IMG/VR virus record: IMGVR_UViG_3300027974_000023
Coordinates: 64,826 to 128,825 of that record
Reading direction: 5' to 3' (one strand)
DNA from: a virus
Length of the DNA stretch: 64,000 nt
Shown in pieces: positions 1,421 through 64,000 of this stretch (positions within the stretch are counted from its first letter, which is position 1; the number at the start of each line of letters is the position of its first letter). The notes beneath the pieces are model-generated. The model was not told the DNA's origin. It ran no database searches and worked only from the letters and a program-made list of their open reading frames with translations. The position numbers and the translations under genes were made by a program.

Positions 1421-1422
1421 GA

Positions 1423-1563: not shown

Positions 1564-1577
1564 TTGCTTTGCCATTA

Positions 1578-1880: not shown

Positions 1881-1907
1881 AATATTAAAATAAAATTAAG
1901 CATCCCC

Positions 1908-2087: not shown

Positions 2088-2099
2088 TTTATTTTTAGT

Positions 2100-3116: not shown

Positions 3117-3149
3117 TGTTTTGTTGGTTTTTGGTTTGTGTAAATTTAA

Positions 3150-3998: not shown

Positions 3999-4058
3999 GT
4001 TTTTATAATTAAAACACAAATATAAAAAGAATATTTGAGAAATCCAATTACTGTCTGA

Positions 4059-10157: not shown

Positions 10158-10158
10158 A

Positions 10159-10836
10159 TTATAAAAATTTTAAATTAAATTTATTTTGTTTAATTAATCT
10201 TGTCATGTGTGATGGTGACTTTTTAAATACCAAAGCTACATCTTTGATTGAATCATAGATAACATTATTTTTTAAATCAATAACTTTTTTCTTTAAAAAT
10301 TGAATTCTATGACTAATTTGATTCTCGCTTTGTTTTTTACCTAACTGAGTGTTTCTATTTATCTCTTTATGCCAGTTAGGTATTTTTTTACCATAGTTAG
10401 GATTATTTACACCACTCATTAATAAAGACATTGCTTGTTTTCTTTCAGGTGTGATTTTTTTACCATACATTGGATTTTTACTACCTAATCTAGATATGGA
10501 TATTTTATTTCTTGTTTCATTGCTTATATTGCAAACTCCTTCACCACCATCAGTTAAATTAACAAGTGTACCCTTACCTATATCTTTTCTTCCATATAGA
10601 GCAATAAACTCAATTTCTTTAGAAACACATTCTTCTTTTGTCAAGTCTTCTAAAACTATTTTAATTTTATATTCAGGATTATTTTTAACAATATTCAACC
10701 AATAATTATTTCTACCAGTTTTATGATAGGCTCTATTATATTTCCATTTTTTTTGATATTTACCTATACCGATATAAAAAACCTCATTTTTATCAGGTCT
10801 TATATGTCTGTATATATAGTATACATTTTCTTGCAT
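10159..10836 (-). CDS. free-standing GIY-YIG/NUMOD3 homing endonuclease
   Basis: YYIYRHIRPD...FYIGIG, EIEFI, LVNLTDGGEG, NPMYGKK repeats. Confidence 0.85.
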   Translation of the reverse strand: MQENVYYIYRHIRPDKNEVFYIGIGKYQKKWKYNRAYHKTGRNNYWLNIVKNNPEYKIKIVLEDLTKEECVSKEIEFIALYGRKDIGKGTLVNLTDGGEGVCNISNETRNKISISRLGSKNPMYGKKITPERKQAMSLLMSGVNNPNYGKKIPNWHKEINRNTQLGKKQSENQISHRIQFLKKKVIDLKNNVIYDSIKDVALVFKKSPSHMTRLIKQNKFNLKFL

Positions 10837-13800: not shown

Positions 13801-14114
13801 TAATCTCTAGTCATATACCACACCTTACCTTTTTCTTTAATAAGAACACCTCTTCTGCATTTTGCTTTTTGGTCATCCCAATAACTTATAAAATCTTTAG
13901 ATTTAAAAGGAGCTGTACAGTAAACTTTGTCTTTATTAAACTTTGCAGACTCTTGTGTAAATAAACTTGTAGTAGTATCATTAAACTCATACTTACCAGG
14001 TTCTTTAAAAACATTGGTTAGCAAGTATTCATATAATTCTTCTCTGGAATTAAAGTCAGTAGAAGTCCATGTACCATTATCCCATGTAGGTATGTCTTGA
14101 TATATTTCTCTCAT
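10839..14114 (-). CDS. terL: terminase large subunit containing an intein
   Basis: Walker A-like LKKRQIASS, Walker B FFHEEAG, nuclease SIDPV, IENN and NVDRLVA motifs. Confidence 0.9.
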   Translation of the reverse strand: MREIYQDIPTWDNGTWTSTDFNSREELYEYLLTNVFKEPGKYEFNDTTTSLFTQESAKFNKDKVYCTAPFKSKDFISYWDDQKAKCRRGVLIKEKGKVWYMTRDYYMWLNFLPIFNKEIQKFGFADIRDAQYHMALYEILAELNYNHIAILKKRQIASSYYHMAKLLNQQWFEEGVTLKIGASLKDYINEKGSWKFLQEYAAFLNEHTAWYRPMSPDKVMMWQQKIEVRRGDRKTEVGLKGTIQGMSFEKDPTNGVGGPVKYFFHEEAGIAPRMDNTYEYMRPAMRSGLTTTGVFIAAGSVGDLSQCEPLRKMILYPKENDIYSVETDLLDNKGSVGRSGLFIPEQWSMPPYIDNFGNSQVAEALEALDDQFEKWKKELAPETYQLRISQHPRNIEEAFANRTISKFPMHLVTAQQRRIEDKEYAYEFLDLGRDANGKILPEHSNKRPIIEFPITKNTEDKTGVLVVWERPVENPTFGMYYASIDPVAEGKAEYVDNMLYTPTGRKRIGDIQIGDKVIGSDGQPINVIGVYPQGIKELCKITFSDGHSIKVCEDHLWNVKLNGGTKGYITLSVKDLLDNTKTITYTGTGKNIKKEYTISTYYKDKQNRNKWSIPITKPVFFKGSAKLSIHPYLLGLLLGDGGLSQKSIRFSTVDEELITYIEHLLDDDLLIKKVKNSNCDYTIVKKTGSRNSLTQKLKALDLKGRRSEDKHIPHQYMYSTIYSRFLLLQGLMDTDGSYSNHGAEFYSSSKIMAYQVVELVQSLGGIAKIRCKKTTHLNSYIVRVLLPEGLTPFRLKRKRDIYKPSKVFSRYITNIECINDGEAICISVDAPDNLYVTEHALVTHNTTTSESLCSIYIMKAPVEVTKVTGIETETYIEPDKIVAAWCGRFDDINKTHQRLETIIEWYNAWTVIENNISLFIQYMISRKKQKYLVPKSQIMFLKDLGSNNSVYQEYGWKNTGTLFKAHLLSYAIEYTKEELDVETKSDGTIVRTKYGIERIPDIMLLKEMAAYSDGVNVDRLVAFCAMVAFMRIQQANRGYSKRVIMDDTAKNLQKSENLYKLSSSPFRHMGRSAGSSSGGKNINRSPFKNIR
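11580..12641 (-). mobile_element. class 3 intein (354 aa) with LAGLIDADG endonuclease in TerL
   Basis: Begins AEYVDN (Ala1), block B EDHLW, block F AICISVD, ends LVTHN followed by Thr; LLGLLLGDGG and LQGLMDTDGS. Confidence 0.88.
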
Positions 14115-29927: not shown

Positions 29928-30200
29928 AAAAAAACCCAGGAAGTAATTCTTGATCAGAGAAACTTTCCTGGGTGTTGCTAACAGTTATATGACTGACTAA
30001 GCGGGGTTCGTCAACCAGACTTAGTGCACATTCATTTTCCTGCGCAGAGAAGGCCAGATCTAGTGAGCAGTTCTTATGGTATGCTTACCTGGCACTGAAC
30101 CTGCAGATCCTATCTACAGGGGAAGAACAAATAAAAAGCCCCGGTGTGACAAGAAGGGCACCGGGGCTTAAACATATAAGGAAGCGGAAACAGCCTTTTA
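29928..30200 (-). ncRNA. candidate structured non-coding RNA
   Basis: GC-rich, six consecutive stem-loops, upstream TACATTTG promoter (30210-30217), terminal hairpin plus U-tract. Confidence 0.5.
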
Positions 30201-30234
30201 ATGTTGGAACAAATGTAATAACTTTTTTAATATA

Positions 30235-32169: not shown

Positions 32170-32514
32170 TACTTTCCGGGTCTATCTACCAAGCATGTTA
32201 CTACAAGGTAAGTTACCACATGGTAATATGGCTCTCACAACTTTATTAATTTTTTACTTACGGTATTTGGGGCTTGTGTGTGGAATGACTTGAGTGGACC
32301 CCCTAGTACCAGCCGCCCCCCTCCGCTAAAGCTTTGGGGTACCCCCTATGCCTTTGCCCTGCTGGCTGGCACACAGCTGCGCCAACAAACTTTTTTCCTG
32401 CCGGAGAAAAAGTTTCTTTGGTTTGCTACCTAACCTCTTTGCACAGACCCTATCTTTTCCTAACCCTTAACTTAATTGGATAACAATTATTAATTAACCA
32501 AAAAACAAAAAGTT

Positions 32515-44196: not shown

Positions 44197-44469
44197 GATG
44201 GAAATATATGGTAGCACTATTTGGGTAAACCCAGAAGAAACTAAAGAATGGTATCAATTAAGGGTAATAAGTCAATGGGATTGGGATTCAAAAGCAATTT
44301 GTTTTCAAAACTTAGACGGACATATTATTAGTTACAAATTAATGCACTGTACAGTACAGCAGTCAAGTACGTATCAATGTAAGACTATAGATATTATTAC
44401 TGATGAGATGAAAGAAGAATTAATTAATCAAGGTTATACAATTTCAAATAAAGTTTAAAAAGAAATAAT

Positions 44470-45282
44470 ATGAAAGATTATAGTAAAGAAAACTTAGATG
44501 TTACACATTACAGAAATGGTGATCCTATTCCTTATGTAAAATCTAAAAAGAAATGGGAAGCATTGACAACAGGTGCTTATTGTTATTATGATAATGAAAT
44601 TGAAAAAGTTGTATTATATAATTGGCATGCTGTAAATGATTCCAGAGGACTTGCCCCTGAAGGATGGAAAATTCCTAAAATAGAAGAATTTGAATTACTA
44701 GATCTAAGTACTGATCTTCCGGGCGGTTTCCGCTACCTCAATGGGAGTTACAACTCCATTGGCTACTACGGTTACTGGTGGAGTTCTTCAGAGTACCTTA
44801 CAAACAATGCTTGGACCCGCTTCCTGAATAGCACCAATGGCAATGCGGCCAGAAACTTCTATGATAAGAGAAATGGGTTCTCTGTTAGGTGTTTGAAAGA
44901 TGAGGTAATAATAAATAAAAGTGAAAACATGGAAGTAGTAATAGATGGAATAGTATATGTTCCTAAAGAATTAGAAAAAAAAGTTGAACCTGTAATTGTA
45001 GAAAAGAATTATAAGTTTGAATTGCATCCCATCATATCAACTAATAAATTAAACTGGGATGATGCAGTAGCATATGCAAAAAGTTTAGGGGATGATTGGA
45101 GATTACCAACCATTGAAGAATGCTTTATTATGTACAATAATAAAATAATTACAGAAGATGTGTATTGGAGTAGTTCGGAGGACTATAGTAACAACGCTTG
45201 GTACTTCTACTTCTTCAATGGGATTGCCAACTTCACCAATAAGCTCAGTACTTGCTTCGTGCGCGCAGTTAGGTCACTTTAA
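44470..45282 (+). CDS. fused FISUMP (Fib_succ_major) + DUF1566/Lcl-type C-lectin-fold protein; putative DGR target
   Basis: NLDVTHYRNGDPIP, LYNWHAV, APEGWKIP, YWWSSS, GFSVRCLKD; then NWDDA, WRLPT, YWSSSE, VRAVR. Confidence 0.85.
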   Translation: MKDYSKENLDVTHYRNGDPIPYVKSKKKWEALTTGAYCYYDNEIEKVVLYNWHAVNDSRGLAPEGWKIPKIEEFELLDLSTDLPGGFRYLNGSYNSIGYYGYWWSSSEYLTNNAWTRFLNSTNGNAARNFYDKRNGFSVRCLKDEVIINKSENMEVVIDGIVYVPKELEKKVEPVIVEKNYKFELHPIISTNKLNWDDAVAYAKSLGDDWRLPTIEECFIMYNNKIITEDVYWSSSEDYSNNAWYFYFFNGIANFTNKLSTCFVRAVRSL

Positions 45283-46190
45283 AAATAATATGGACACAGC
45301 ACATGAAATTGCAGTAGAAGTTTGGAATAACTACATTGCAAGACCTAACAATGATCCTGAAAAGCATAGATTTAGCTTCAAAGATTTAGAAAAAGCTATT
45401 AACTTAAAACTAAAAGAAAATGTGGAAAAAGATTAAAAGATTATTTTGTAAGCACACATATGTACCAAGTGTAACTCCTGGGTATCACATATGTATAGAT
45501 TGTTATAAACATAAAAAGTTGATATGAAAACAGCAGTAGAATGGTTGGTTGAACAAATGATTAAATGTGAATTATTACCTAAAAGTATTCATCCTGATAA
45601 TGTGTTATTCCATAATGCCAAAGAAATGGAAAAAAATAATACTGATAACAAGGTTATTCACTTTGCAGAATGGCTAACTAATAAGCATACAACAACATTA
45701 ATTACATTGTATGAACAGTTTGAAGAAGAACATTATAAAGAAAATTATGAAAGCAACATTTGAATTTGATATGAATGAGCCTGATGATGTAATGGAGCAT
45801 AGAAGAATGTCTCATTCTCTTGGTATGGCTTTAGTATTATGGGAACTTAAAAATAATGCAAAAAGAAAAATGGAAGATATTATAGATTCTTCTGATATTG
45901 AACCATTATCAGGTCAAGATACTTTAGATAAATTTTTTGATCTATTTTATGAACTTATGGAGGATCAAGGTATAAATATTGACAACTTAATACAGTAATT
46001 ATGGAACAAACAATTCCCCATGAAGAAAATGTAAAAAACTATACTGTTGTAAGGCATGTAATGTTTTATCCAAAAACTAGTAGAGTAAGTCTTGATGACT
46101 TAAGAAAGTTTTTTACTCTAGAGGCTATTGCTTCTTTTATTCAGTATGATTACATAGTAAGAGATTGTACAACTATTAAACCAAAGAAGA

Positions 46191-46850
46191 ATGCAGACTA
46201 AATTAATATCTATAACTCAGTCACAGATTGAAGGAGTTAATAGTCCAGAAGAACTTATTGTATATACTGCAAGAGTTAGTAATCCGGAGAATCAGATGAA
46301 TATGGAAACAGCAGATAAGTTGTTGAAGTATTTAATTAAGCATAAGCACTGGAGTCCATTTGAGATGGTTGACCTTACTGTAGAGATAAAGACTAGTAGA
46401 GCTATTGCTGCTCAGATACTAAGACATAGATCTTTTTCATTCCAAGAGTTCTCTCAAAGATACTCTGCTGTAGCAGAGATTGAGACTATTCAGTTAAGAG
46501 CAGCCGGAGCTACCAACAGACAGTCAAGTCTTGAACCATGTAATCCTACTTTATTTAATTCTCCATTATATGCTGAGGATATAATTAATGAACATTTAGA
46601 AAATTCTCAACAACTTTATGAAGAACTAATAAATAAAGGAGTTGCTAAAGAATGTGCGCGTATGGTACTACCATTAGCAACAAGTAGTACACTTTATGTT
46701 AAAGGTTCAGTAAGATCTTGGATACATTACTTACAGATTAGATGTGATGAGACAACTCAGTTAGAGCACAGAGAAATTGCTTTAAACATCTTAGATATCT
46801 TCAAGGTACAGTTTCCAAACATATATCAAGCTATATTTAGTTATGACTAA
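46191..46850 (+). CDS. thyX: FAD-dependent thymidylate synthase
   Basis: HWSPFE, RHRSFSFQEFSQRY, ECARMVLP, TQLEHR. Confidence 0.95.
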   Translation: MQTKLISITQSQIEGVNSPEELIVYTARVSNPENQMNMETADKLLKYLIKHKHWSPFEMVDLTVEIKTSRAIAAQILRHRSFSFQEFSQRYSAVAEIETIQLRAAGATNRQSSLEPCNPTLFNSPLYAEDIINEHLENSQQLYEELINKGVAKECARMVLPLATSSTLYVKGSVRSWIHYLQIRCDETTQLEHREIALNILDIFKVQFPNIYQAIFSYD

Positions 46851-51401: not shown

Positions 51402-53878
51402 GTATAGTACTTCCAACTTCAAAAGTTAAGGCAGAAAGAGTAAACCCAAAAAGAATGGTTATTTATTCTAAGCCTAAAACTGGCAAGACAACATGTTATG
51501 CAGGTCTTGAAGATAATCTGATATTAGATTTAGAGCATGGTGCAGATTTTATTGAAGCTCTCAAAGTTCCAATTACAAGTTTACAACAGCTTTTAGATAC
51601 TGGAAAAGCAATCAGAGAAGCAGGTAAGCCTTACAAGTATATAACTATAGATACTGTTACTGCGTTAGAAGATATGATACACCCACTTGCCATAAAACTT
51701 TATAAACAAACGCCGATGGGAAAGAATTTTGATGGAGATAATATTACCACTTTACCAAACGGTGCTGGTTATTTATATATCCGCACTGCATTTTTCCAAG
51801 TGCTTGACTTTGTAGATACTCTTGCTGATCATGTAATTTTATCTGGACACATTAAGGATTAATTGTTAGTTCTTATAAAACCTCTTTAATTGCTGGAATA
51901 TCCTAAAGACAAAATAACTACAATAGTCAAGAAATTAGACTATGAATGTTTGAAAATATTTTGTATCTTTATAGTGACCAAAAAATTCACTATATGAATG
52001 GACAATCAGCAGCCAAGTCTCTAAGTTCACATGAATATGAGAAAGGTTCAACGACTATCAAAACCACTTTTTATAAAGACAAGGGAGTAGAGTACACTAG
52101 CAATAGTGGAAAAGGGAGGAATTTACATACAACTTTTATTTATGCTTTGCTAGAAAATAATACAAATAATATTAGGTATATAGGTAAAGCTAATAATGTA
52201 CAACAAAGATTTAAGTTTCATTTATTAGATAAAGGAAAAACTCATAAAACATGTTGGTTAAAATCAATTGATTATAATATAAGTTATATTATTTTAGATG
52301 AAGTTGATAAATCAGAATGGCAATTTTGGGAAATTTATTGGATAAATCAATGCAAAGTTTGGGGATTTAATTTAACAAATCAAACATTAGGTGGTGAGGG
52401 AGGTTTAGGAAAAAAACTATCTGAAGAACATAAACAAAAAATTTCAATTAAACTTAAAGGAAAAATAGTTAGTTCAGAAACTAAACAAAAACTTTCTAAA
52501 AGTATAAAAGGAAAAAAGCTTAGTGAAACCCATATAAGAAATTTATCTAAAAGTCATAAAGGATTAATTTATCCTAAAGGTAATTATGGTAAACATTGTA
52601 AAAGAAAAATAGGTCAGTATAAAGAAGGAATTCTTATAAAAGTTTGGGATAGTTTAAAAGATGCATCAGAATTTTACAAAGTTCATTATGCATCAATATC
52701 TCACTGTTGTGCAGGAAGGAAAAAACAAATAAAAGGATATATTTGGAAGTATGTAGATTAAGATATAGTCTAATCCTGTTAGAAATAACAGGTAGAAATG
52801 AAACAAGTAGATGATAAAGGTGAGCTTGTTATGTCTGCTAATATTGATTTGACAGGTAAAATAAAGTCTCTAATCTGTGCTAATGCTGATGCTATTGGTT
52901 AACTTAGTAGCCACTTTCTATAGTAATATAGATTGAAAAAGCTTTTTAATTGTCTGGGAACTCTGACCACTTAAAGGTGAAGACAATCAGCAGCCAAGTT
53001 ATAAATAAATTATTATGAGTAAATTAAGTTTAGAACCAGGAACAAAAGTTAATAGATGGACAATTTTACATTGGGAAAAATCTTCTAAAAGATATGTGTG
53101 CCAATGTGATTGTGGAATTATTAAAAAAGTTACGGGTTATTCAGTTAAGTCTGGAGCAAGTAAATCTTGTGGTTGTTATAATATTGAACAAATAGTTGAA
53201 AGAAGTTCTAAACCTCTTTTTACAGCAATGTTTTATCAAGTTTACATGAATTACCAAAAACAAGCTTTACTTAGAAACTATGCTTTTGATATTAATTTAG
53301 ATGAATTCAAAGAACTATTAATTCAAAATTGTCATTACTGTAACGCTGTTCCAGCAAATACTTTTAAAGGACATAAAAGAAAGTTTAAAGATACATCTGA
53401 GTTTGTATATAATGGTATAGATAGAAAAGATAATAATATAGGTTACACAATAAAAAATTGTGTACCTTGTTGTCAAAAATGTAATTTTGCTAAAAAGAAT
53501 TATTCATATGATGAATGGATACTTTGGATTAAGCAAGTGTATGACAACTTATTTATAAAAGGTTCAACGACTATCCCAAAGGGGAGTACACTGCAAGCTA
53601 ATGGTAGTGGAAAAGGAAGCCTTCCTAACAAGGAAGAAGATATAGTCTCATCTTAATAGAAATATTAAGCAGTTTAATAAACGGAATTAATGTTGCGTAT
53701 TAATTTGAAGATAATGTACATGTTCAGAAAAGGGCCGAAAACTATCTTGTCTTTTAAGTCTAATGATGAAGTAACATGTGGTGCAAGACCAGATCATTTG
53801 AGAAATAAAGAAATAGTAATTGCTGATTCTACTGATGGAGATTTGAAAATTTCCTGGGATGAGGTATATGTAAAATAA
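51398..53878 (+). CDS. AAA_24/Sak4-like ATPase, spliced from exons 51398-51859, 52801-52899 and 53717-53878
   Basis: SKPKTGKTT, LDLE, IDTVT; spliced frame ...GHIKD|KQVDDKG...NADAIG|YMFRKG... is continuous. Confidence 0.85.
51860..52800 (+). mobile_element. group I intron 1
   Basis: Exon ends in U, intron ends in G; aattgctggaa (P), aatcagcagcc (Q), gttcaacgacta (R), aagatatagtct (S). Confidence 0.9.
51946..52761 (+). CDS. intron-encoded GIY-YIG/NUMOD homing endonuclease
   Basis: FIYAL...RYIGKA, WEIYWI, LTNQTLGGEGG, NUMOD3 and NUMOD1 motifs; start uncertain. Confidence 0.85.
   Translation: MFENILYLYSDQKIHYMNGQSAAKSLSSHEYEKGSTTIKTTFYKDKGVEYTSNSGKGRNLHTTFIYALLENNTNNIRYIGKANNVQQRFKFHLLDKGKTHKTCWLKSIDYNISYIILDEVDKSEWQFWEIYWINQCKVWGFNLTNQTLGGEGGLGKKLSEEHKQKISIKLKGKIVSSETKQKLSKSIKGKKLSETHIRNLSKSHKGLIYPKGNYGKHCKRKIGQYKEGILIKVWDSLKDASEFYKVHYASISHCCAGRKKQIKGYIWKYVD
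52900..53716 (+). mobile_element. group I intron 2
   Basis: U/G boundaries; aattgtctgggaa, aatcagcagcc, gttcaacgacta, aagatatagtct. Confidence 0.9.
53015..53656 (+). CDS. intron-encoded HNH-type homing endonuclease
   Basis: CQCDCG, SKSCGC, CHYC, NGIDRKDNNIGY..NCVPCC..CN. Confidence 0.85.
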   Translation: MSKLSLEPGTKVNRWTILHWEKSSKRYVCQCDCGIIKKVTGYSVKSGASKSCGCYNIEQIVERSSKPLFTAMFYQVYMNYQKQALLRNYAFDINLDEFKELLIQNCHYCNAVPANTFKGHKRKFKDTSEFVYNGIDRKDNNIGYTIKNCVPCCQKCNFAKKNYSYDEWILWIKQVYDNLFIKGSTTIPKGSTLQANGSGKGSLPNKEEDIVSS

Positions 53879-54647: not shown

Positions 54648-55622
54648 ATGATTTCTACTACAAATATCATTACTGATTTGAGACAAGTTCCAACTGAATG
54701 GATATTTGAGTATTACTTGAATCTTACAGAAAAATTAGTTGGTCAGGATATTAAGATGCATTCTGTTTTTGTTAAAGAGAATACTCCATCTTTTTGTATT
54801 TACTATAATACTCTTAAGGGTTATAAATTTAAAGATTTCTCTTCAGGTAAAAATGGAGATGCTATTGAATTTGTGCATCAGTATCTTAATTTAAGTAACC
54901 GTGGTTCTGCAGCAATGAAGATACTAGAAGATTATTCAGAATTTATTGCTAATAATGGAACTATTGTTGTTAACTCTGTACCAGAAAGTAGATATCAAGT
55001 ATCTGATTATGAGATTAGACATTGGAATAGCTTAGATCAAGACTTTTGGATGAGTTACAAAATTTCATCTAAAATGTTGTCTAAGTATAATGTACAGCCT
55101 CTCAAGTTTTTTACTCTTAGCAAGTTGGATAACAATGGTGATTATAAAGAATTGAAGTTTGAGAATCAATATACTTATGGTTATTTTAAGGAAGATGGTA
55201 GTTTGTATAAAATCTATCAGCCTAAGAATAAAAAGAGTAAGTTCATAAAGATTAAGGATTATATCCAGGGATCAGAACAACTTACCTTTACCTCAAAGTA
55301 TTTGATCATTACTTCTTCATTAAAGGACATGATGGCTTTTGAAACTCTTGGTATCAAAAATGTTGAATGCATTGCTCCAGACAGTGAAAATAGTTTTATA
55401 CCTTTAACTGAAATGCAAAAATTAAAAAGCAGGTATTTCAAGATCATAGTTATTTTTGATAATGATGAAGCAGGTATTGAAGCTACTGGTAGATATGCTG
55501 CAAAATATGAGACTGAATATCTTATATTTCCATTAGCAAAAGACATTGCTGATTCAGTTGAGCAGCATGGTGTAGTAAAAACTAGAGATACAATGTTTCA
55601 ACTCTTAAAGAATATACTATGA
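54648..55622 (+). CDS. DNA primase (Toprim)
   Basis: ENTPSF, FKDFSSGKNGD, ITSSLKD, FDNDEAG, KDIAD. Confidence 0.82.
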   Translation: MISTTNIITDLRQVPTEWIFEYYLNLTEKLVGQDIKMHSVFVKENTPSFCIYYNTLKGYKFKDFSSGKNGDAIEFVHQYLNLSNRGSAAMKILEDYSEFIANNGTIVVNSVPESRYQVSDYEIRHWNSLDQDFWMSYKISSKMLSKYNVQPLKFFTLSKLDNNGDYKELKFENQYTYGYFKEDGSLYKIYQPKNKKSKFIKIKDYIQGSEQLTFTSKYLIITSSLKDMMAFETLGIKNVECIAPDSENSFIPLTEMQKLKSRYFKIIVIFDNDEAGIEATGRYAAKYETEYLIFPLAKDIADSVEQHGVVKTRDTMFQLLKNIL

Positions 55623-55792
55623 GTTACATAAAAGATCTCACTCTAAAAGAAATGTCAAAAATGCTTGAAGATACTGTAAAAGAAAATAGAGCTTTAGAAC
55701 TTGAAATGATGGAACAAGCTTGTGAAATATCACAACTTAGATCACAGCTTAAACTTTTCAGAATTGGACATGGACTTAAAAACAAATTATAA
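55619..55792 (+). CDS. small coiled-coil protein (57 aa)
   Basis: Manual translation MSYIKDLTLKEMSKMLEDTVKEIRALELEMME... Confidence 0.55.
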   Translation: MSYIKDLTLKEMSKMLEDTVKENRALELEMMEQACEISQLRSQLKLFRIGHGLKNKL

Positions 55793-55799
55793 CTGATTT

Positions 55800-55988
55800 A
55801 TGAGTTCAACAAATACAGCTCCTATATGGAGTAAAATTAATGAAGATATTTCAATCATAGAACTGAGAAAAGAAAACAGAGCTCTTGACATGGAACTTAT
55901 GGAAGCTTATGAAAAAATAAGAAGTTTGGAAAATACTTTGGCTTTTTTAAAATTAACTAAGTTTGGTACTAAAAATGAAAAATTATGA
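55800..55988 (+). CDS. small coiled-coil protein, paralog of preceding ORF
   Basis: KENRALDMELME. Confidence 0.55.
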   Translation: MSSTNTAPIWSKINEDISIIELRKENRALDMELMEAYEKIRSLENTLAFLKLTKFGTKNEKL

Positions 55989-56416
55989 TAGATTTTTGGA
56001 CATACAAAGGAAAAGTATTTGGTGAACTAGATATTCCTGAAGGAGCTATTGGTTTTATTTATCACATGACAGCAATAATAGATGGTAAGTCTGTTGCTTA
56101 TATAGGTAAGAAGAACTTCTTTGCTAATATAAAGAGACCATTAGGTAAGAAAGCTCTGGCTGTTACCACTGATAAAAGACTTAAGAAATACACAAGAGTC
56201 ATCAAGCCTGATTTTCTTAACTATTATAGCTCCAATGCTATATTGAAAAAAGCTCATAAAGAAGGTGTGCATATTAAAAGAGAGATCTTAATGATCTGCT
56301 ACTCAGGCATGGAGCTTACATATCAAGAAACAAAACATCAATTTGTATATGAAGTATTAGAGAAAGAAGAGTTTCTTAATGGAAACATTCTTGGTCGGTT
56401 TTATAAAACAAAATAG
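55985..56416 (+). CDS. GIY-YIG-like (Seg-type) endonuclease
   Basis: GFIYHM...YIGKK, YYSS, REIL, NGNI. Confidence 0.65.
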   Translation: MIDFWTYKGKVFGELDIPEGAIGFIYHMTAIIDGKSVAYIGKKNFFANIKRPLGKKALAVTTDKRLKKYTRVIKPDFLNYYSSNAILKKAHKEGVHIKREILMICYSGMELTYQETKHQFVYEVLEKEEFLNGNILGRFYKTK

Positions 56417-56418
56417 TT

Positions 56419-56790
56419 ATGAGTGAAGAAAACAAATTAATTGGGAGTTTATTAAAACTTGCTGATTTAGGTATAACAGCTATAAGAATTTCATATTCTG
56501 GAAGTGGTGATGATGGATCAATTGATGAAGTATTAGCTACAAGAGATAATGCAGATGATTTTGAAGATGTATACAGTTTAGATTTTTTTGAAGAAATAGA
56601 TTCTGAAAACAGAACAATAATTGCTGATTGGTGTGTTGAAAAATTACTAAATGATATTGAAGATTGGTGGAATAATGATGGTGGCTATGGTTATTTATAT
56701 ATTAAAATTCCTTCTGGGGAATATAAAATTGAGAATAACATAAATTATGTAGAAACCTTTAATCATTCTGGTAAAATTTTAGATGTATAA
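56419..56790 (+). CDS. DUF6878-like protein
   Basis: YSGSGDDGSI, DWWNNDGGYG. Confidence 0.6.
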   Translation: MSEENKLIGSLLKLADLGITAIRISYSGSGDDGSIDEVLATRDNADDFEDVYSLDFFEEIDSENRTIIADWCVEKLLNDIEDWWNNDGGYGYLYIKIPSGEYKIENNINYVETFNHSGKILDV

Positions 56791-56792
56791 TT

Positions 56793-57140
56793 ATGGCACA
56801 TCCTTTATTACATGCTAAATCCTCTGTTAAGAAATGGGGAGGTCAGATATCTGATTATCAAGCAATTCATGAATGGTTTGATGAATCCAAAGCTTGGATA
56901 GGTCACAGTAAACATAGAATGTTCCGTCACCATAGTGAAGGTATATTTGAATGTGAAAAAAGATTTGGATCCAGTTTTATTAATTCTGATGGGGTAACTG
57001 TATATACAAGATATGTTGGAGAACAACATGTAAAGGAAGATTGCTTTGGTTATATACCAAGTGCAAAAGAATGGGTTGAGGCTTTAGAGTCTGGAAAACC
57101 AAAAGAGTGGATGCTTAAAACATTAAAAATTGAGGACTGA
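56793..57140 (+). CDS. DUF6915-like His-rich protein
   Basis: HAKSSVKKWGG, HEWFDESK, HRMFRHH, GEQHVKED. Confidence 0.65.
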   Translation: MAHPLLHAKSSVKKWGGQISDYQAIHEWFDESKAWIGHSKHRMFRHHSEGIFECEKRFGSSFINSDGVTVYTRYVGEQHVKEDCFGYIPSAKEWVEALESGKPKEWMLKTLKIED

Positions 57141-57918: not shown

Positions 57919-60334
57919 TGGATAAAGTTCAGAGTCTTAGTAAGACAAGTAAAGATCTTATGATGAAGGAGCCCTATTATGGCTACTTTCTTATAATGCT
58001 TAATAAAACGTGGAGAAATGATATTCCTACAGCAGGTGTTAGTAAAAATGGTATAAACTATCAGCTTGCTATTAATGAAAAGTTTTGGTTAGAATTAACT
58101 GATAATCACAGACTTGGAATTTTGAAGCATGAGCTCAATTAGGGCTCCTTATACAGTAATGTATATGTAAAATGTCTTAAATTGACGGGAACTCCCTAAA
58201 GCTTTATCTACTAAGCATACACTGTGAAGTAGTATGTGGCTGAACTAATCATTCAGGTATAGTAAAAAAGATAAAGATGTCTAAATGGGCAATCCGCAGC
58301 CAAATTTCTTGGTTATACTGTTTATTTTTGGTATATTGTAACATAAATACTTACATATATGAAAATAGAAATAGAACAAAAAGTAATTGATTATTATGTT
58401 ACTGATAAATTATCAGGTAAAAAGATTGCAAGTATATTACAGTTAAATATAAAAAGGGTATTTGCAATTCTAAAAAGAAATAATATAAAATCAAGAACTT
58501 TGTCTGAATCATCAATGAAATATACTTGTCAAGATGACTTTTTTAATGTAATAGATACAGAAAAAAAAGCATATTGGTTAGGTGTTCTTTTTGCTGATGG
58601 TAATATTACAAAAAAAGCAAGTAAATCAGGACAGATAATTTTTTCATCAAAAGATAAAGATTGGGTAGAACAATTTTTATCAGATGTTGGATCAAATAAT
58701 TCTCCTAATTGTGAATATCAAAAAGTATTTAAAAAATATATATGGAAAGCTCAAATAACATCAGCTCAAATGTATAATGATTTAAATAATTTAGGATGTA
58801 CACCAGCTAAAACTAAAACAATAAGAATACCTATACTAAAGGATGCATTAATTCATCATTTTATAAGAGGTTATTTTGATGGTGATGGTACAGTTGGAGC
58901 CTACAAAAACTTAAAAAATAGTGATTGGAAAATCTTAAAATCAGGTTTTTGTTCAGGCTCAAAAGAATTTATTATTGAATTATTGAAAATATTACCAGTA
59001 AAAAATAAAACTATCAAGCAAAGTAAGGAATGTTATATTACACAACACTCTTTACATGATACACTTAAGTTATATAATTTTATGTATAAAAATTATACAG
59101 TATGCTTGAATAGAAAAAGACAAATTTTTATTGATTATTTAGACACATATGTACCAAGAAAGAGGTTCAACGACTACAATAGGCCATCCCAAGTGGATGA
59201 AGGTATAGTCTGATCTCATGTGAAAACATGAGTTAACAAAAATGCTTGCATATTGCTTTTGGACATTTGACAACATATTTCATGTTTAGTGACCATAAGT
59301 TAGCAAATGTTGCAATGGATATGGAAATCAACCAATATATTGATAGATCTTGGTTGCCAGGTGCTGAACTTGATCATGAACAATATAAAGCTTTGAAGAA
59401 AGCTGTATTAGAAGAATATCAGGCTGCTAAAGAAGCCGGAAAAGATAAAGAAGAGCTAGATCAAATAGCTAAAAAGTTACCAATGCGTGGTGTACTTATT
59501 GAAGATTATCCTGAATTGAATCTTGATCTTAAAGCAGGCTGCAGATATTATTATGATAAACTGAAAGAAGCTAAAGAACAAAAAGAAAAAACAGGAACAT
59601 CTGGATCAGAAGCATTTGATCAATTATGTGATCAAATGGATTCAGAAATGAATACTGGAAATGAACATCCTACATGGGAAGAATTTGAAGGTATCAGTGA
59701 AGCAGAGCAGAAACTAATTGATAAACAGATTCAAAGAATTCTTACTGAAGCTAAAGAACAAACAGTCAAAAAGCAAGGTCATGTACCCGGTGAAGTGGAA
59801 GGTCTTATTAAAATAGAGGAGATAGTTCCACCTAAGTTTGATTGGAGGGGTTATATCAGAAGATTTACTGGAATCAGTACCAAAGTATATACTAAAAAAG
59901 TTAGGAGAAAGGAGAACAAAAGATTCTCAGATTTTCCTGGACTTAAAATCAAAATGAAACAACATATGTTGTTGGCTATTGATACTTCTGGTTCTGTAAG
60001 TGATACAGAGCTTAAAGAATTTATGAATGAGATTCATCACATTTATAAAGCAGGGGTTGAAATCACAATTATTCAATGTGATACCCGTATCAATAGTATT
60101 GAGCCTTATAAAGGCAAAAATGAAATTACTGTAAGGGGTAGGGGAGGCACAAGTTTTGAACCTGTACTTGACTATTATTCAGCTAATGGAAAGAAGTTTA
60201 CAAGTCTTGTATATTTTACTGATGGTGAATGTTATACCCGTCAGAAACCAAAAGGAAATGTATTATGGGTTATTTCTGAAAGATCAGAATTAAACAAGTC
60301 ACTTCCTGGAAAAGTTATCAAATTAGAGTTATAA
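57918..60334 (+). CDS. HEXXH metallopeptidase-vWA protein (DUF2201-like), spliced from exons 57918-58135 and 59245-60334
   Basis: Splicing restores HELLH; NVAMDMEINQ; MIDAS DTSGS, GGGT, YFTDG. Confidence 0.87.
58136..59244 (+). mobile_element. group I intron 3
   Basis: P1 gagcU:Ggcuc; aaattgacggga, aatccgcagcc, gttcaacgacta, aaggtatagtct; terminal G. Confidence 0.9.
58359..59213 (+). CDS. intron-encoded LAGLIDADG endonuclease
   Basis: AYWLGVLFADGNI, FIRGYFDGDGTV. Confidence 0.88.
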   Translation: MKIEIEQKVIDYYVTDKLSGKKIASILQLNIKRVFAILKRNNIKSRTLSESSMKYTCQDDFFNVIDTEKKAYWLGVLFADGNITKKASKSGQIIFSSKDKDWVEQFLSDVGSNNSPNCEYQKVFKKYIWKAQITSAQMYNDLNNLGCTPAKTKTIRIPILKDALIHHFIRGYFDGDGTVGAYKNLKNSDWKILKSGFCSGSKEFIIELLKILPVKNKTIKQSKECYITQHSLHDTLKLYNFMYKNYTVCLNRKRQIFIDYLDTYVPRKRFNDYNRPSQVDEGIV

Positions 60335-60345
60335 AAATTAAAGTT

Positions 60346-61518
60346 ATGAGTAAGTCAGTTCAATTAAATTTAGATGAGATTAAGGATTTTGTAAAATTCA
60401 TGGTTAAGAATAACCAACATATTCAATCACAAGGAAAAGTTCCTGTAGCTATAAATGTGGAAGGAGACGCGGGGCTTGGTAAAACTTCATCAGTTAAGCA
60501 ACTTGCAAAAGAACTTAACATGGATGTAATCAGATTAAACTTAGCTGAGTTTGAAGAATTAGGTGATTTAGTAGGTTTCCCTGTTAAAGAATTTGAAATC
60601 CAAAATGCTGAAGGTAAAAAGACATGGATCAATGAGCATCAGATTGATGCTGCAATGAAGAAAGGTTACAAGGTAACGGATAAAAGAATGTCACATGCTG
60701 CTCCAGATTGGATTCAAGGTAAGGGAGAAGGTGGATTCTTAATTCTTGATGATTATACCAGAGCTGACCATAGATTTATGCAAGCTACAATGACTCTTAT
60801 TGATGAGCAAGCTTATGCTTCTTGGAAATTACCTAAGAACTGGCATATTTTATTGACTACCAATCCTGATAATGGAGATTACAATGTAACTTCATTAGAT
60901 ATTGCTCAAAAAACAAGATTTATTTCCACAGAAGTAAAATTTGATGTGAATGTTTGGGCAAGATGGGCAGAGCAAGTTAACATAGATGGTAGATGTATCA
61001 ACTTTATGTTAATGCATCCTGAATTGGTTACTCAAAGTGTTAATCCAAGAGCAATCACTACTTTCTTTAATTCAATAAGTTCTATTGAAGATTTTGCAAA
61101 AAATTTACCAATGATTCAAATGATTGGAGAAGGTTCTGTAGGTCCGGAATTTGCATCAATGTTTACATTGTTTATCAATAATAAACTTGATAAAATTATT
61201 AGTCCGGAAACTATTCTTACCAAAGAAGAAGGCTATGTTTTAGGAGCTCTTAAAGCTGCTGTTGGTGAAGGTGATGATTTCAGAGCTGATTTATCAAGTA
61301 TTATTGCAACAAGATTAGTAAACTATTCTTTGGTTTGGGCTGATAAAAATCCTGTTAGTAAGGATATGTCACAAAGATTAATCAAATTAGTAACTGATTG
61401 TGAATCATTTACTACAGACTTAAAATACTATTTGATTAAGGAAATTGTTAACGGAAACAAAGTGAAATTTGGTTCTTTGATGATAAATCCTGATGTAGTA
61501 AAAATGGCTGTGAAGTAA
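60346..61518 (+). CDS. MoxR/AAA_5-like ATPase
   Basis: GDAGLGKT, LILDDYTRA, LTTNP, AQKTRF; follows vWA gene. Confidence 0.82.
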   Translation: MSKSVQLNLDEIKDFVKFMVKNNQHIQSQGKVPVAINVEGDAGLGKTSSVKQLAKELNMDVIRLNLAEFEELGDLVGFPVKEFEIQNAEGKKTWINEHQIDAAMKKGYKVTDKRMSHAAPDWIQGKGEGGFLILDDYTRADHRFMQATMTLIDEQAYASWKLPKNWHILLTTNPDNGDYNVTSLDIAQKTRFISTEVKFDVNVWARWAEQVNIDGRCINFMLMHPELVTQSVNPRAITTFFNSISSIEDFAKNLPMIQMIGEGSVGPEFASMFTLFINNKLDKIISPETILTKEEGYVLGALKAAVGEGDDFRADLSSIIATRLVNYSLVWADKNPVSKDMSQRLIKLVTDCESFTTDLKYYLIKEIVNGNKVKFGSLMINPDVVKMAVK

Positions 61519-61610
61519 TCAAAGGTGTGCTGTTCCCTTAAAATAACAGATTTATAATTATTAACAAAGATAGGGGGTGATTACATCCCCTATTATTTTA
61601 TACTAAAGTT

Positions 61611-62924
61611 ATGTTAGAAAATGCTTTACATATTAATATAAGATATCCCAGAGAAGGTAGTGGTAAATTATCTAAAGTAAATCATCTTATACTACAAGAT
61701 ATAAGAATTTTGCATACCGGAGAAAAGCCTGAAAGTTTTTTCCCAAATCTTTTAACTAATTATGTTGTAAATAAAGGTGACAAGTTTTATTTTTTAGAAA
61801 AAGTTTCTATACCTAGAGTTAAATTAAAGGAATTTAATGAACAAAATGGTACTAAAACCGTAAGAGATTTAGAATCTGCAACACACATTTTTGCATCAAA
61901 AGATACTATAAAGCTTTATACTCAACATGAATGGAGTTATACTATAAGCACTGAATTATTTAAATTCTTTTTTGATTTATATAAGGATTATTTTGATAAA
62001 AAAGAACAAGAAGATATCAGACAAGTTTTAGAATTTTATCCTCATGATCTTCTTTTTTGTGATTATACAAGTATGAAATTATTACAAGATACTGGTTTAC
62101 CTAATTATGCTACTTTTGCAGCACATAAAGATTTTGGTAGTATTGCTAATTCATCTCATAATTACATAATAAGCTCTGAATATCTTTATATATACAATTC
62201 TATTAAAAATAAAGTTTTGTATGATGAATCTTGTTTAATCAGTCTTTTAAATGGTACTACTGCTGCAATCATTGATGAAAATCTATTTGGTAGTTTATGT
62301 ACAATGTTGGATAGTTCAGATACTGATAACCATGTTTTGGCTATGGAAATAATGGCTAATTCTCAATATGAAAAAAGTTTGTTGTATTTACTTATTCTTT
62401 TCTATGAATATAGAAATATAATGTACAATCTTCCTTCAAAAAGACATGTTAATTTTAAATCTTTACTGAGTTATCTAAACTCTGATGGTTATATGCATTT
62501 CAATTTAGACAAAATTGTTGAGCTGTTAAAAGATAAAGGAGTTCTTACAACAGATATGTTAGATGTATTATTATATAGATATCATAAAGAAATTACAGAT
62601 ACAGGTTCAACAGCTATATTTAAAGTAAAGAATATTACAGTTGACCCTGAAATTTTAGCTTTTATGAACAAGCCTTATCAGTTCAATCTTGAAGAAGACT
62701 ATGTACCTACGGTAGAGGAGGTGATTCCGGAAGATTTCTTAACTTACATACCAACTGTTGAAGAAGAAACTTTTACTGAATTAAATGAAGAACCTTCTGA
62801 TGATTACTATAAAGAAATTGCAGAAGAAGAGCTTCCAGGTACAGTTTCTGAAGAAGAAAATATTGAAGCACCTATTGTTGAACCTAAAAAAGAAGAAGAT
62901 GAGTCAAGCATTGATTGGTTCTAA
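61611..62924 (+). CDS. hypothetical protein with acidic C-terminus
   Basis: ORF track; possible BRCT-like N-terminal segment. Confidence 0.55.
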   Translation: MLENALHINIRYPREGSGKLSKVNHLILQDIRILHTGEKPESFFPNLLTNYVVNKGDKFYFLEKVSIPRVKLKEFNEQNGTKTVRDLESATHIFASKDTIKLYTQHEWSYTISTELFKFFFDLYKDYFDKKEQEDIRQVLEFYPHDLLFCDYTSMKLLQDTGLPNYATFAAHKDFGSIANSSHNYIISSEYLYIYNSIKNKVLYDESCLISLLNGTTAAIIDENLFGSLCTMLDSSDTDNHVLAMEIMANSQYEKSLLYLLILFYEYRNIMYNLPSKRHVNFKSLLSYLNSDGYMHFNLDKIVELLKDKGVLTTDMLDVLLYRYHKEITDTGSTAIFKVKNITVDPEILAFMNKPYQFNLEEDYVPTVEEVIPEDFLTYIPTVEEETFTELNEEPSDDYYKEIAEEELPGTVSEEENIEAPIVEPKKEEDESSIDWF

Positions 62925-63918
62925 TGAGGAATTAGAACAATTTTATAGAAAGAAATTTTACTTTAGTTACAGTGGGATTAATAAGTTGCTATTTTCCCCA
63001 GCTATGTTCTACAATCATTATGTTCTTAACCAAAGAGAAGATTCTACAGATGCACATTTAGTTGCTGGTAGAGTATTACATTGTCTTTTGTTTGAAGAAG
63101 ATAAGTTTGAAGAACAATTTTTAACACTACCGGGTAAAGTTCCAACTGATAGTCAAAAGAAAATTATTGATTATATTTTCAAATATCATTTGACAATTGG
63201 GAATAATACTTTATCTTTGGTGGACTATCCGCAGGATATACTCTCTCAACTACTCACAGCTAATCTCTATCAATCTCTCAAAACTGATCAACAAAGACTT
63301 GACAAAGTTTTAACTTCAGAAAACATAGAGTATTTTGAATTCTTAAAAGCTAGCCTAGGCAAAACAGTAGTAGATGAAGTGACTCTTACATCATGCAGAG
63401 CACAAGTTGAGGTCTTAAGAGCTAATCAAGATGTCAGAGCTTTATTACAGTTAGATAGAGATTCTTCAGATACTTCTATTAAAACTGTTTCAGAGTTAAA
63501 ACTAACTTATGACCATCCAGACTTAGCTTTTGGATTACATGGTGTACTTGACAATGTAGTTGTTGACAAAAACTCAAAAACCATCTTTATTAATGACTTA
63601 AAAACCACTGCAAAATCAATTCAAGATTTCCCAGAAAGTGTTGAATACTATAGATACTGGCTTCAAGCTGTTATCTATACTGTATTAGTAACAAATCAAT
63701 TTTTAAAAGGAAGGGAGGATAAGGAAGATTGGAAAATTCAAATTACTTTTATAGTAATTGATAAATACAATCAAGTTTATCCTTTTCAAGTGAGTGAAGA
63801 AACACTAGAGAAATGGAAAGCAGACTTCAAAGAGTTAATTGTCAAAGTTAAATGGCATTATGACAACAGAAGGTATGACTTACCATATGATCTAGCATTA
63901 GGTAATGTAAAATTGTAA
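62785..63918 (+). CDS. PD-(D/E)XK exonuclease (RecE/DUF3799-like); probable start 62899
   Basis: SYSGI, GRVLHC, GVLDNV, INDLKTT, YWLQAVIY. Confidence 0.78.
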   Translation: MKNLLMITIKKLQKKSFQVQFLKKKILKHLLLNLKKKKMSQALIGSNEELEQFYRKKFYFSYSGINKLLFSPAMFYNHYVLNQREDSTDAHLVAGRVLHCLLFEEDKFEEQFLTLPGKVPTDSQKKIIDYIFKYHLTIGNNTLSLVDYPQDILSQLLTANLYQSLKTDQQRLDKVLTSENIEYFEFLKASLGKTVVDEVTLTSCRAQVEVLRANQDVRALLQLDRDSSDTSIKTVSELKLTYDHPDLAFGLHGVLDNVVVDKNSKTIFINDLKTTAKSIQDFPESVEYYRYWLQAVIYTVLVTNQFLKGREDKEDWKIQITFIVIDKYNQVYPFQVSEETLEKWKADFKELIVKVKWHYDNRRYDLPYDLALGNVKL

Positions 63919-64000
63919 AAATTATGGCTTTAAGTTCAGTGTATAGGAAATATTTCCAAAAATCCCAAGTATTTATATATCCGCTCTTGGGGATTCAAAG

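Follow-up and report, generated by a model that had tools for sequence, protein, structure and literature searches.

Diversity-generating retroelements (DGRs) are treated as self-contained elements, in which the reverse transcriptase (RT), the template and the target are inherited together in one genome. The DGR of the Bordetella phage BPP-1 is composed of the mtd variable region (VR), avd, the template repeat (TR), and brt. There the whole cassette lies beside its target, the tip of the tail fibre. Cyanobacterial DGRs are said to have remote, that is non-adjacent, targets. The avd-TR-brt part of a DGR can act in trans from a plasmid, and remote targets are known, for example in Treponema denticola (PMC5758913). 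In the same account, Wu et al. consider remote targets unexpected in phage contexts, since these would not be inherited together (PMC5758913). The case presented here is the reverse, since their argument is about cellular targets of phage DGRs. As described in PMC12875486, a DGR does not strictly need a stem-loop, and integration is dependent on target replication.

The Fib_succ_major and DUF1566-type families are described as CLec2-type DGR targets (PMC5758913). Cellular DGRs with targets of the CLec2 class (DUF1566/DUF823/Fib_succ_major) make up 'category d' of Wu et al. 2018, an example of which is the Legionella pneumophila DGR with the lipoprotein LdtA (PMC5758913). Among phages, crAss-like phages with DGRs and hypermutated receptor-binding 'tentaclins' are reported to encode their own DGR (PMC10743442, PMC12386605). 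A literature search found no published account of a phage gene diversified by host DGRs. Here we describe a phage gene that is probably rewritten in trans by cellular DGRs.

The window analysed is a stretch of 64,000 nt, positions 64,826 to 128,825 of IMG/VR record IMGVR_UViG_3300027974_000023. It belongs to a freshwater phage with a genome of 128.8 kb, Crassvirales-like by portal similarity. The best cultured relative of the portal is that of a Leptolyngbya (cyanobacterial) phage, at 34%, and crAss-like phages of Bacteroides, Flavobacterium, and Cellulophaga rank behind. The phage thus shares with the tentaclin phages, as these are described, both the group and the possession of hypervariable lectin-like proteins, but unlike them it encodes no DGR of its own. 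The gene of interest has two domains (Table 1), with D144 at nt 44901. Pfam profiles matched its product at E 1e-19 (Fib_succ_major, PF09603) and E 1.7e-16 (Lcl_C, PF07603), both of which pass the curated cut-offs.

Table 1. Features of the fused gene and its variable regions, in positions of the window.
Feature	Position	Strand	Basis
Two-headed lectin-like protein gene, 270 aa (Fib_succ_major + linker + Lcl_C/DUF1566)	44470..45282	+	ORF list, Pfam
Minimal Fib_succ_major (FISUMP) domain, aa 1-144, C-terminal VRCLKD	44470..44901	+	Pfam, comparison with relatives
VR1, 181-nt DGR variable region	44716..44896	+	In register with G315 TR scaffold; GC; hypervariability
Between-sample variable patch inside VR1	44822..44849	+	Run X2 contig against window
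Linker EVIINKSEN	44902..44928	+	Conserved in 13 fused homologues
Lcl_C/DUF1566 module, aa 154-270, from internal ATG (M154), C-terminal VRAVRSL	44929..45279	+	Pfam, relatives
VR2, 111-nt DGR variable region	45163..45273	+	In register with 'type A' DUF1566 TR scaffold of L040, L046

The two domains are not always joined. M154 matches the start of standalone genes of about 120 aa in relatives, where the Fib_succ_major domain is a separate gene or is joined to another partner (L001). In relatives with separate genes (L002-L009 and L036 were compared), the region equivalent to the linker is the spacer before the start of the Lcl_C gene. The fusion therefore looks like the loss of a stop codon, and the whole gene like two small phage genes joined by stop loss. 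Among the matches listed there were 12 full-length fused homologues, with 67-79% identity. Each half is predicted to encode a minimal C-type-lectin-like (CLec2-class) putative binding domain, the last 37-60 codons of which are a genuine DGR variable region, and the protein may well be a binder. An AlphaFold model built from a 13-sequence alignment had a mean pLDDT of 42, and the assignment of the CLec fold rests on the Pfam families. A sequence search of the PDB gave one weak match, 8q4e_A 'HbP1' (E 2.9e-4, residues 206-269), and the literature found under that name was limited to the unrelated human HBP1.

The N-terminus, MKDYSKENLDVTHYRNG..., is without a hydrophobic stretch as judged by eye from the sequence. 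The neighbours of the gene form a + strand run of small ORFs that includes thymidylate synthase, and the head, portal, and terminase genes are on the minus strand 30 kb away; the gene is outside the structural module. This differs from BPP-1, as does the absence of a stem-loop behind the VRs and of any cassette beside them. Category d targets, as described, also differ in having a signal peptide and long N-terminal parts; the phage proteins appear to lack these and consist of minimal domains, here with two fused.

The two VRs stand out in composition. Their GC content is 0.48 (VR1, 44716-44895) and 0.45 (VR2); the remainder of the gene has 0.29, and the genome mean is 0.315 (sd 0.047, 120-nt windows). 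GC reaches 0.46 or more in only 6 segments of the 128.8-kb genome, VR1 among them. Within the set of two-fold pyrimidine-ending codons, those ending in C number 14 of 26 for VR1 and 12 of 21 for VR2; elsewhere in the gene they number 7 of 57. ARAGORN found no tRNA genes in the GC islands elsewhere in the phage genome, which rules out tRNA genes as the cause of those islands.

Variation among relatives follows the same two regions. The alignment used consists of the 13 full-coverage proteins among 120 matches listed. Where the template reads AAY, at 46 codons, the mean number of residues is 5.74 and all but one of the codons vary (45 of 46); where it has no A at positions 1-2, at 36 codons, the mean is 1.33, with 26 invariant and 10 varying. 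Outside the VRs, the mean over 173 positions is 1.78 residues. In both VRs, the set of variable codons is particular to each of the 13 fused homologues. When the window is compared with seven standalone-gene loci, the variable codons, set among fixed W/S/G/A/F/K codons, alter positions 1-2 but have C or T throughout at position 3, and the comparison of VR1 with L001 and L036 gives the same position-1-2 pattern with a fixed scaffold. Both VRs are at the C-terminal end of their Pfam domain, as in DGR targets. VR1 and VR2 are thus genuine DGR variable regions.

A sequence-only reading of the window had described a FISUMP domain ending VRCLKD fused to a DUF1566/Lcl domain ending VRAVRSL, each with a GC-rich, NNC-rich 3' end in which a DGR footprint was recognised. 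The ORF list and the Pfam matches agree with the first part, and the GC and codon counts of VR1 and VR2 with the second. The footprint held as well, the variable codons being those that are AAY in the template, with position 3 and the scaffold fixed among relatives.

The machinery itself is not in the phage. Profile searches of the whole 128.8-kb genome at E<=1 gave no match to the RT (PF00078) or to bAvd (PF22296), and tblastn with two cellular DGR RTs and their Avds reached a best E of 0.11. For a template, an adenine-tolerant ungapped scan of both strands of the genome scored at best 18 outside the self match, where shuffled genomes scored 16-17, and whole-genome blastn gave nothing above the shuffled background. 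Could an RT be hidden in a missing part of the genome? Homology between the end of the contig (124916-128825) and its start shows that the contig wraps round and the circle is closed. Together with the mapping of both ends to one place of the relative G001, this rules out a hidden RT. None of five related viral records has an RT, and one of the five is 121,857 bp long with a CheckV completeness of 100%. In 21 related loci there was no convincing TR/VR pair within 10 kb of the gene. Neither a DGR-clade RT nor a TR or Avd is therefore present in the phage genome, as they would be in a self-contained cassette like that of BPP-1.

Three other Fib_succ_major domains of the phage were considered as templates or VRs. 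They are in tail-fibre-like ORFs (genome positions 51553-53397 and 55323-56969) and were rejected, having about 37-38% protein identity and not being GC islands.

Templates of both kinds are present in chromosomes of Flavobacteriales. A TR-like 27-mer was found in four GTDB stretches, all from Bacteroidota MAGs with contigs of up to 336 kb, and in seven metagenome stretches. Ten of the 11 matches are Asn-rich non-coding copies; L045, a GC-rich and unrelated copy, was left out. Two Flavobacteriales loci are full cellular DGR cassettes, with target, bAvd, TR, and RVT_1 in one locus. In the MAG L040 the order is a Por_Secre_tail protein, an Lcl_C target, bAvd, TR, and RVT_1; in G315 it is a Por_Secre_tail-like protein, a collagen and Fib_succ_major target, bAvd, TR, and RVT_1. 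Pfam matched bAvd at E 1e-22 and 1e-15, respectively, and RVT_1 at E 2e-23 in both. When the VRs of these cassettes are compared with their own TRs, 18 of 18 and 30 of 31 mismatches are at A. In these bacteria the cassettes diversify secreted surface proteins, and as far as the account of category d goes they are ordinary members of it.

The phage VRs match these templates in the manner expected of DGR targets. VR2 has 16 mismatches to the L040 TR, 15 of them at TR adenines (p 4.8e-6), and the one exception (GCC) is the letter found in the TR of L046, a metagenome contig with a 'type A' DUF1566 TR. VR1 has 34 mismatches to the Fib_succ_major-type TR of G315, 29 of them at TR adenines (binomial p 6e-8); with five non-A mismatches, this TR is not the exact cognate of VR1. 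A TR with the phage's own VR1 scaffold letters was not found, the TR1-specific pattern being present in only one of 121 family genomes, which was G315 again. The VR1 scaffold pattern, which catches both VRs and TRs, was present in 8 of 401 order genomes. Viral copies of the VR2 type have 1-5 non-A mismatches of 16-26 to the nearest cellular TR in 13 of 14 copies. This comparison leaves out L004, which runs off the end of its contig, L007, which has the same sequence as L006, and L022, L023, L026, L031, L032, and L034, which are on the same contigs as other loci; the ungapped count for L003, 21 non-A of 41, is not meaningful because L003 has an indel. The likeness to category d, in the terms of its published description, covers the target families, the class of VR scaffold and the adenine-specific mismatches. 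The difference is that here a phage genome without any part of the cassette carries the VRs.

One bacterial family holds both kinds. G009 has a type-A DUF1566 cassette and also a Fib_succ_major VR with a phage-like scaffold, and G315, with the Fib_succ_major TR, surfaced in the search of the G009 family. Within one lineage of the phage gene, the VRs are mosaics of two template types. Over the 240 nt upstream, the locus L024 and the window share 90% identity; in VR2, L024 has scaffold letters of type B towards both ends, in the 5' part and the 3' part, and variable codons in common with the window in the middle.

The absence of an RT from the phage and the presence of the templates in Flavobacteriales chromosomes suggest that the phage gene is diversified by hypermutation machines of the host. 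As to how, one specific account seems to us just on the likely side. During infection, two chromosomal retroelements of a Flavobacteriales host would write adenine-mutagenised cDNA into a single phage gene, and the small lectin genes would be a phage-side receiver module tuned to the template type of the current host. The phage would replicate in a cassette-bearing cell, the RT-Avd complexes of which would copy the TR RNAs into cDNA mutagenised at adenines. This cDNA would pair with the homologous stretches of replicating phage DNA and replace all or patches of VR1 and VR2, so that the two binding tips of one protein would be re-randomised independently, each by a different host retroelement. 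The published properties of DGRs, action in trans, a dispensable stem-loop and dependence on target replication, permit such a mechanism. Under this account the cDNA may enter phage DNA directly, and the cassette-bearing bacteria are presumed to be hosts of the phage. The gene would resemble BPP-1 in being a phage gene for a lectin-fold binder that is diversified at template adenines, with avd-TR-brt functions that work in trans (PMC12875486). It would resemble the remote targets in having VRs far from the RT and TR and served in trans, and several targets per organism are possible there. Known remote targets, however, share a genome with their DGR and are inherited together with it, whereas here the target is on a phage, the cassettes are on bacterial contigs, and one gene draws on two different DGRs.

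The cDNA might instead be supplied by another mobile element, such as a co-infecting phage, a prophage, or a satellite that carries the same template types in a DGR of its own. According to the literature listing, DGRs are common in phages of Bacteroidota, crAss-like phages included. Near-identical type-B TRs occur in MAGs labelled Chitinophagaceae, Bacteroidia, and Bacteroidota, which suggests that the cassettes themselves move horizontally. In IMG/VR, however, all stretches matched by the exact scaffold patterns were VRs (14 of 14 and 2 of 2) and none was an Asn-rich template, and there was no match to the VR1-type TR core. The cassettes were found on contigs measuring 219 kb and 336 kb, and adjoining ComEC or menaquinone genes. 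We consider a mobile donor improbable. The sequence-only reading had reported no RT, avd or template in 64 kb, which now extends to the whole genome by the profile, tblastn, and template searches, and it had required two different templates, which the Fib_succ_major-type TR of G315 and the DUF1566-type TR of L040 and L046 provide in separate cellular cassettes. Of the three sources that it named for diversification in trans, the rest of the genome is excluded, a co-infecting phage has no support in IMG/VR, and the data point to cellular DGRs of the host type.

Are the VRs still changing? Runs were compared as assembled Logan contigs, which drop rare variants. Run X2 contains a 5628-nt contig of the same phage, which has eight differences from the window over 1737 compared bases (44264-46000). 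All eight are in the VR1 patch of Table 1 and all eight are on TR adenines (chance 3.4e-10), the changes being TTC>TAC, AGC>AAC, ACC>TAC, AAT>ATT, GCG>GCA, and GCC>AAC. The X1 and X2 samples share their year and habitat type, and may have been taken in a single campaign. VR2 is identical in runs X1, X2, and X3. This identity, like the lack of RT, Avd, and TR in the phage genome, would suit a fixed relic, in which the VRs, a one-time capture from a bacterial DGR target or a remnant of a lost phage DGR, are now static. Such a relic is very hard to reconcile with eight A-site differences between contigs that are otherwise identical, with the differences at template-AAY codons in 13 of 13 homologues, and with scaffold letters that have not drifted towards the AT-rich codon use of the genome, and we give it almost no credence. 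The earlier reading was to be abandoned if no A-specific template and no variation were found; a Flavobacteriales TR matches, and the predicted sites vary both in homologues and between two samples. In both comparisons the variation is restricted to template adenines.

The form of the change between X1 and X2 raises a further possibility. It is an internal patch of 28-40 nt, and the variable codons that flank it are unchanged on either side. Simple 3'-to-5' replacement does not fit an internal patch, and recombination between alleles explains it equally. Without any retrohoming, short tracts could have been swapped during co-infection with DGR-diversified host VR DNA or with other phage alleles, and the adenine pattern would be inherited from the diversification of bacterial genes. 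The mosaic of L024 and the window, with its common middle part, is consistent with such swaps. So is the co-occurrence in runs X1-X3 of related strains with other VR2 versions (records 7, 15, and 23; the sequence downstream of their stop codon differs as well), and the conserved scaffold offers identical blocks of 10-20 nt for exchange. However, the 5' and 3' limits of the VRs are the same in all phage copies seen, and none carries host-gene sequence beyond the TR-homologous stretch. The 13 homologues, each with its own codon set, would need very many independent short exchanges. The non-A scaffold letters stay identical to the TR in an AT-rich genome, as repeated copying of a template gives, and recombination among phage alleles only reshuffles diversity and does not explain its origin. 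We regard recombination as a possible but rather unlikely source of the variation, and rewriting by cellular DGRs as the probable one.

The 3' ends of the VRs retain GC-rich blocks, GTGCGCGCAGTTAGG and GGGTTCTCTGTTAGGTGTTTGA, and a GC-rich VR 3' end common to the TR is also a feature of BPP-1. The homology between phage VR and TR ends earlier at the 3' end than it does in the cis targets, at GTTAGG for VR2, and the last bases of VR1 have two G>A changes relative to the TR. With the shortened homology, part of any IMH-like signal may be missing. No stem-loop better than those of shuffled sequences (z-scores 0.26-1.13) was found behind the phage VRs or the cellular cis VRs, and the absence is uninformative because the cellular cis targets are without one too.

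If cellular DGRs do rewrite this gene, host-encoded DGRs would give viruses targeted hypervariation at no coding cost, and phage evolution would become tied to the retroelements that each host contains. Such targets would escape any DGR survey that looks only for VRs beside an RT, and Roux et al. 2021 describe their own survey method as blind to remote targets (PMC8144416). The layout of two templates for one gene and the mosaic of template types suggest that a VR tracks the template of the host, and VRs could thus mark host linkage in metagenomes.

Runs X4 to X24 contain small shares, X4 being represented by a relative of about 89% identity that also has the fused gene. Near the gene in relatives there are a few A-biased short repeats, 45-72 nt long and of low identity, which are in AT-rich DNA.

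Above its curated cut-offs, Pfam assigns one half of the gene to Fib_succ_major (E 1e-19) and the other to Lcl_C/DUF1566 (E 1.7e-16). In the last part of each domain the GC content jumps, to 0.48 in variable region VR1 and 0.45 in VR2, versus 0.29 in the gene remainder. The genome mean is 0.315, and in 120-nt windows a value of at least 0.46 is reached in only 6 genome segments, VR1 among them. The share of two-fold pyrimidine-ending codons that end in C is 14/26 in VR1, 12/21 in VR2 and 7/57 in the remaining gene. This confirms the composition switch noted in a sequence-only reading, which had also placed both stretches accurately; alignment to templates gives the limits tabulated here. The product is a putative two-headed lectin-like binder. 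The apparent absence of a signal peptide is compatible with a virion or a cytoplasmic role alike and does not decide between them; in the genome, the gene is not part of the structural block.

Coordinates, in the window, of the two-domain gene, its variable regions and the sites differing in run X2
Feature	Position	Strand	Description
Two-domain gene	44470-45282	+	ORF, 270 aa
VR1	44716-44896	+	Alignment to templates
VR2	45163-45273	+	Alignment to templates
X2 differences	44822, 44831, 44833, 44834, 44843, 44847, 44848, 44849		All in VR1

A protein search retrieved 12 full-length fused homologues, 67-79% identical, the longest of their contigs measuring 119 kb, and in the resulting 13-sequence alignment the consensus is undetermined exactly at the NNC codons. 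Distinct residues were counted per position of this alignment. The 46 template-AAY codons hold a mean of 5.74 (1 invariant), the 36 template codons lacking A at positions 1-2 a mean of 1.33 (26 invariant), and the 173 positions outside both VRs a mean of 1.78 (84 invariant). In codon alignments the scaffold codons are fixed and the interleaved codons change at positions 1-2, with position 3 staying C or T; the flanks diverge ordinarily, mostly by synonymous changes. The proposal of two regions like those of diversity-generating retroelements (DGRs) is upheld by this concentration of variation at template-AAY codons, and on these alignments we take VR1 and VR2 to be real DGR variable regions. 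Could they be a frozen relic? The spread of residues at template-AAY codons among the 13 homologues contradicts this. One fused homologue (P0010) has an internal tandem duplication within VR2 (…YLNNKTNTYLNNKTNTY…, alignment columns about 283-300), and at the same place the related locus L003 contains additional codons; VR length therefore also changes.

A search for related loci found 21 viral loci. L002-L009 each carry the Lcl_C half as a gene on its own, ~120 aa long, and in L001 the Fib_succ_major half lacks the Lcl_C half and is joined to a different small ORF. As the halves occur separately in relatives, the window gene is a fusion, whose linker corresponds to the spacer preceding the start of the standalone Lcl_C gene. 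The Fib_succ_major gene of the complete relative G001 (L001 9980-10570) extends in frame to include a homologue of window ORF 46001-46201, with the Lcl_C half and three small ORFs missing. Because of this second fusion, fusions seem to recur at the 3' edge of VR1.

The window makes up the second half of an IMG/VR record of 128,825 bp (CheckV 100%, 'linear'). Genes for large terminase, portal and major head protein (minus strand, window 4-14 kb) identify it as a phage. Portal similarity links it to crAss-like phages infecting Bacteroides, Flavobacterium and Cellulophaga, the best cultured match being a Leptolyngbya phage (34%). Thymidylate synthase is encoded 0.9 kb downstream of the two-domain gene. 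The contig end (124916-128825; window 60091-64000) is homologous to the contig start, at 92.6% over 1-244 and 78% over 1005-4756, and both ends map to a single region of the 121,857-bp G001. Some 760 extra bases (245-1004) are present in the start copy and absent from the end copy. On the simplest reading of these sequences, the assembly completed a circle and then continued in a variant strain that lacks the extra bases, in which case no part of the genome would be missing. Throughout this genome the claimed absence of reverse transcriptase (RT), avd and template was borne out: PF00078 gave 0 matches at E<=1 and PF22296 (bAvd) 0 matches, tblastn searches with RT and Avd proteins from two cellular cassettes reached a best E of 0.11, blastn found no repeats of VR1 or VR2, and a template scan forgiving adenine mismatches had 18 as its top non-self score, versus 16-17 in shuffled genomes. 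RT was likewise missing in 5/5 related viral records (CheckV completeness 100, 18, 46, 12 and 63%).

Templates were sought with scaffold patterns having N at variable positions. The VR2 pattern found 14 stretches in IMG/VR, all at ORF 3' ends, some of these ORFs having unrelated N-terminal parts; none of the 14 was an Asn-rich copy. A template-like 27-mer with three unmutated AAC codons, present verbatim in locus L028, found 2 stretches in IMG/VR (both VRs only), 4 in GTDB genomes (all Bacteroidota MAGs, contigs up to 336 kb) and 7 in metagenomes. Asn-rich copies in non-coding context made up 10/11 of the GTDB and metagenome stretches, 8 of scaffold type B and 2 of type A (L040, in a Flavobacteriales MAG, and L046); the window's scaffold letters are type A. 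L040 is a textbook DGR cassette, in which a Por_Secre_tail protein is followed by a secreted Lcl_C target of 312 aa that contains the VR, then by bAvd, template repeat (TR) and 416-aa RVT_1 RT. It is chromosomal, since an ATPase and ComEC come next. Its own cis VR differs from the TR only at template adenines (18/18 mismatches). Of the 111 positions of VR2, 16 differ from this TR; template adenines account for 15 of these (p 4.8e-6), and the sole other mismatch is the letter present in the L046 TR.

Type-B TRs and their upstream avd (L037, L038, L039, L041-L044, L047) are near-identical in nucleotides across MAGs labelled Bacteroidota, Chitinophagaceae and Bacteroidia, which suggests that this cassette may have spread horizontally and recently. 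The L039 TR has TAG in place of the GAG of other type-B TRs, and that of L044 is one codon short.

The VR1 scaffold pattern found 2 stretches in IMG/VR. The genome holding L040 (G009) encodes a secreted Fib_succ_major target whose VR resembles the phage scaffold; no TR lies closer than 10 kb. Behind this 'orphan' target (L049, G009:C11:13300-33200, reverse strand ~8120-10676), which avd, TR and RT do not adjoin, comes a truncated version of the ATPase gene found after RT in the L040 cassette; the locus represents a remote target or else a cassette minus its retroelement part. The VR1 scaffold was matched by 8/401 genomes of the same order. Among them, G315, retrieved also by a search in the family of G009, has the full cassette of collagen + Fib_succ_major target, bAvd, TR and 432-aa RT, the RT being 77% identical to that of L040. 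VR1 differs from the G315 TR at 34/181 positions, 29 at adenines (p 6e-8). Because five mismatches fall off adenines, the comparison shows G315 to be closely related to the true template but not identical with it. The expectation of A-specific matches to two different templates thus held, with a DUF1566-type TR (L040, L046) matching VR2 and a Fib_succ_major-type TR (G315) close to VR1. The G315 TR core had 0 exact matches in IMG/VR, and a mobile element as donor of template cDNA, for which IMG/VR offers no support, is very improbable.

How would cellular templates reach a phage gene? We think it fairly probable that cellular DGRs act in trans upon replicating phage DNA, which would diversify both VR1 and VR2. 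The avd-TR-brt components are described as working in trans (PMC5758913), and integration is reported to require replication of the target (PMC12875486). The same source describes a stem-loop behind the VR as helpful, not essential; none was found behind the phage VRs or the L040/G315-type cellular cis VRs.

Three sequencing runs (X1-X3) hold the gene stretch well, as assembled contigs. The X1 contig is identical to the window, and X1 may be the source sample. The X2 contig, from another sample under another study code, is equally long (5628 nt) and shows 8 differences from the window in 1737 compared bases. As predicted for template adenines, 8/8 fall on positions with A in the G315 TR (chance for random sites 3.4e-10), and these VR1 differences between contigs again speak against a frozen relic. 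The variable codons either side of the patch are unchanged. Such patchy changes are equally compatible with the main rival, in which short tracts recombine with host or phage alleles diversified beforehand; we consider this rival somewhat unlikely overall. VR2 is identical across X1-X3; short low-depth contigs in these runs carry another VR2 version, assigned to a related strain because the sequence past the stop differs too.

Both template types appear to have served one lineage. The gene at L024 is 90% identical to the window gene over 240 nt upstream of VR2 and shares its phage-specific 3' end; within its VR, the 5' and 3' parts show type-B scaffold letters, and the middle has the window's variable codons. 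In 13/14 viral VR2-type copies, 1-5 of the 16-26 mismatches to the nearest cellular TR are at non-A positions. For these reasons the phage VRs look like mosaics, possibly written from whichever template type was available.

DGRs, CLec2 targets and remote targets are already known. Wu et al. (PMC5758913) treat remote targets solely within one genome, whereas here the target is viral and the matching templates are cellular; Roux et al. (PMC8144416) note that their own method misses remote targets. In the open-access literature we found neither a virus target served by cellular DGRs nor a single gene drawing on two DGRs. The present case contributes a crAss-like phage and CLec2 cassettes of Bacteroidota type, together with a fusion holding two VRs and an A-site difference between samples.

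The genome's strongest GC island lies at window 32206-32475 (up to 0.617 in 120-nt windows), where ARAGORN, run on the window, found no tRNA; a second lies at 29949-30211. The large-terminase ORF (window 10842-14114, minus strand) is unusually long for TerL at 1091 aa. It has terminase-family matches in two separate parts, residues 58-490 and 490-847, and its middle also matches primase and DnaC-like P-loop families.
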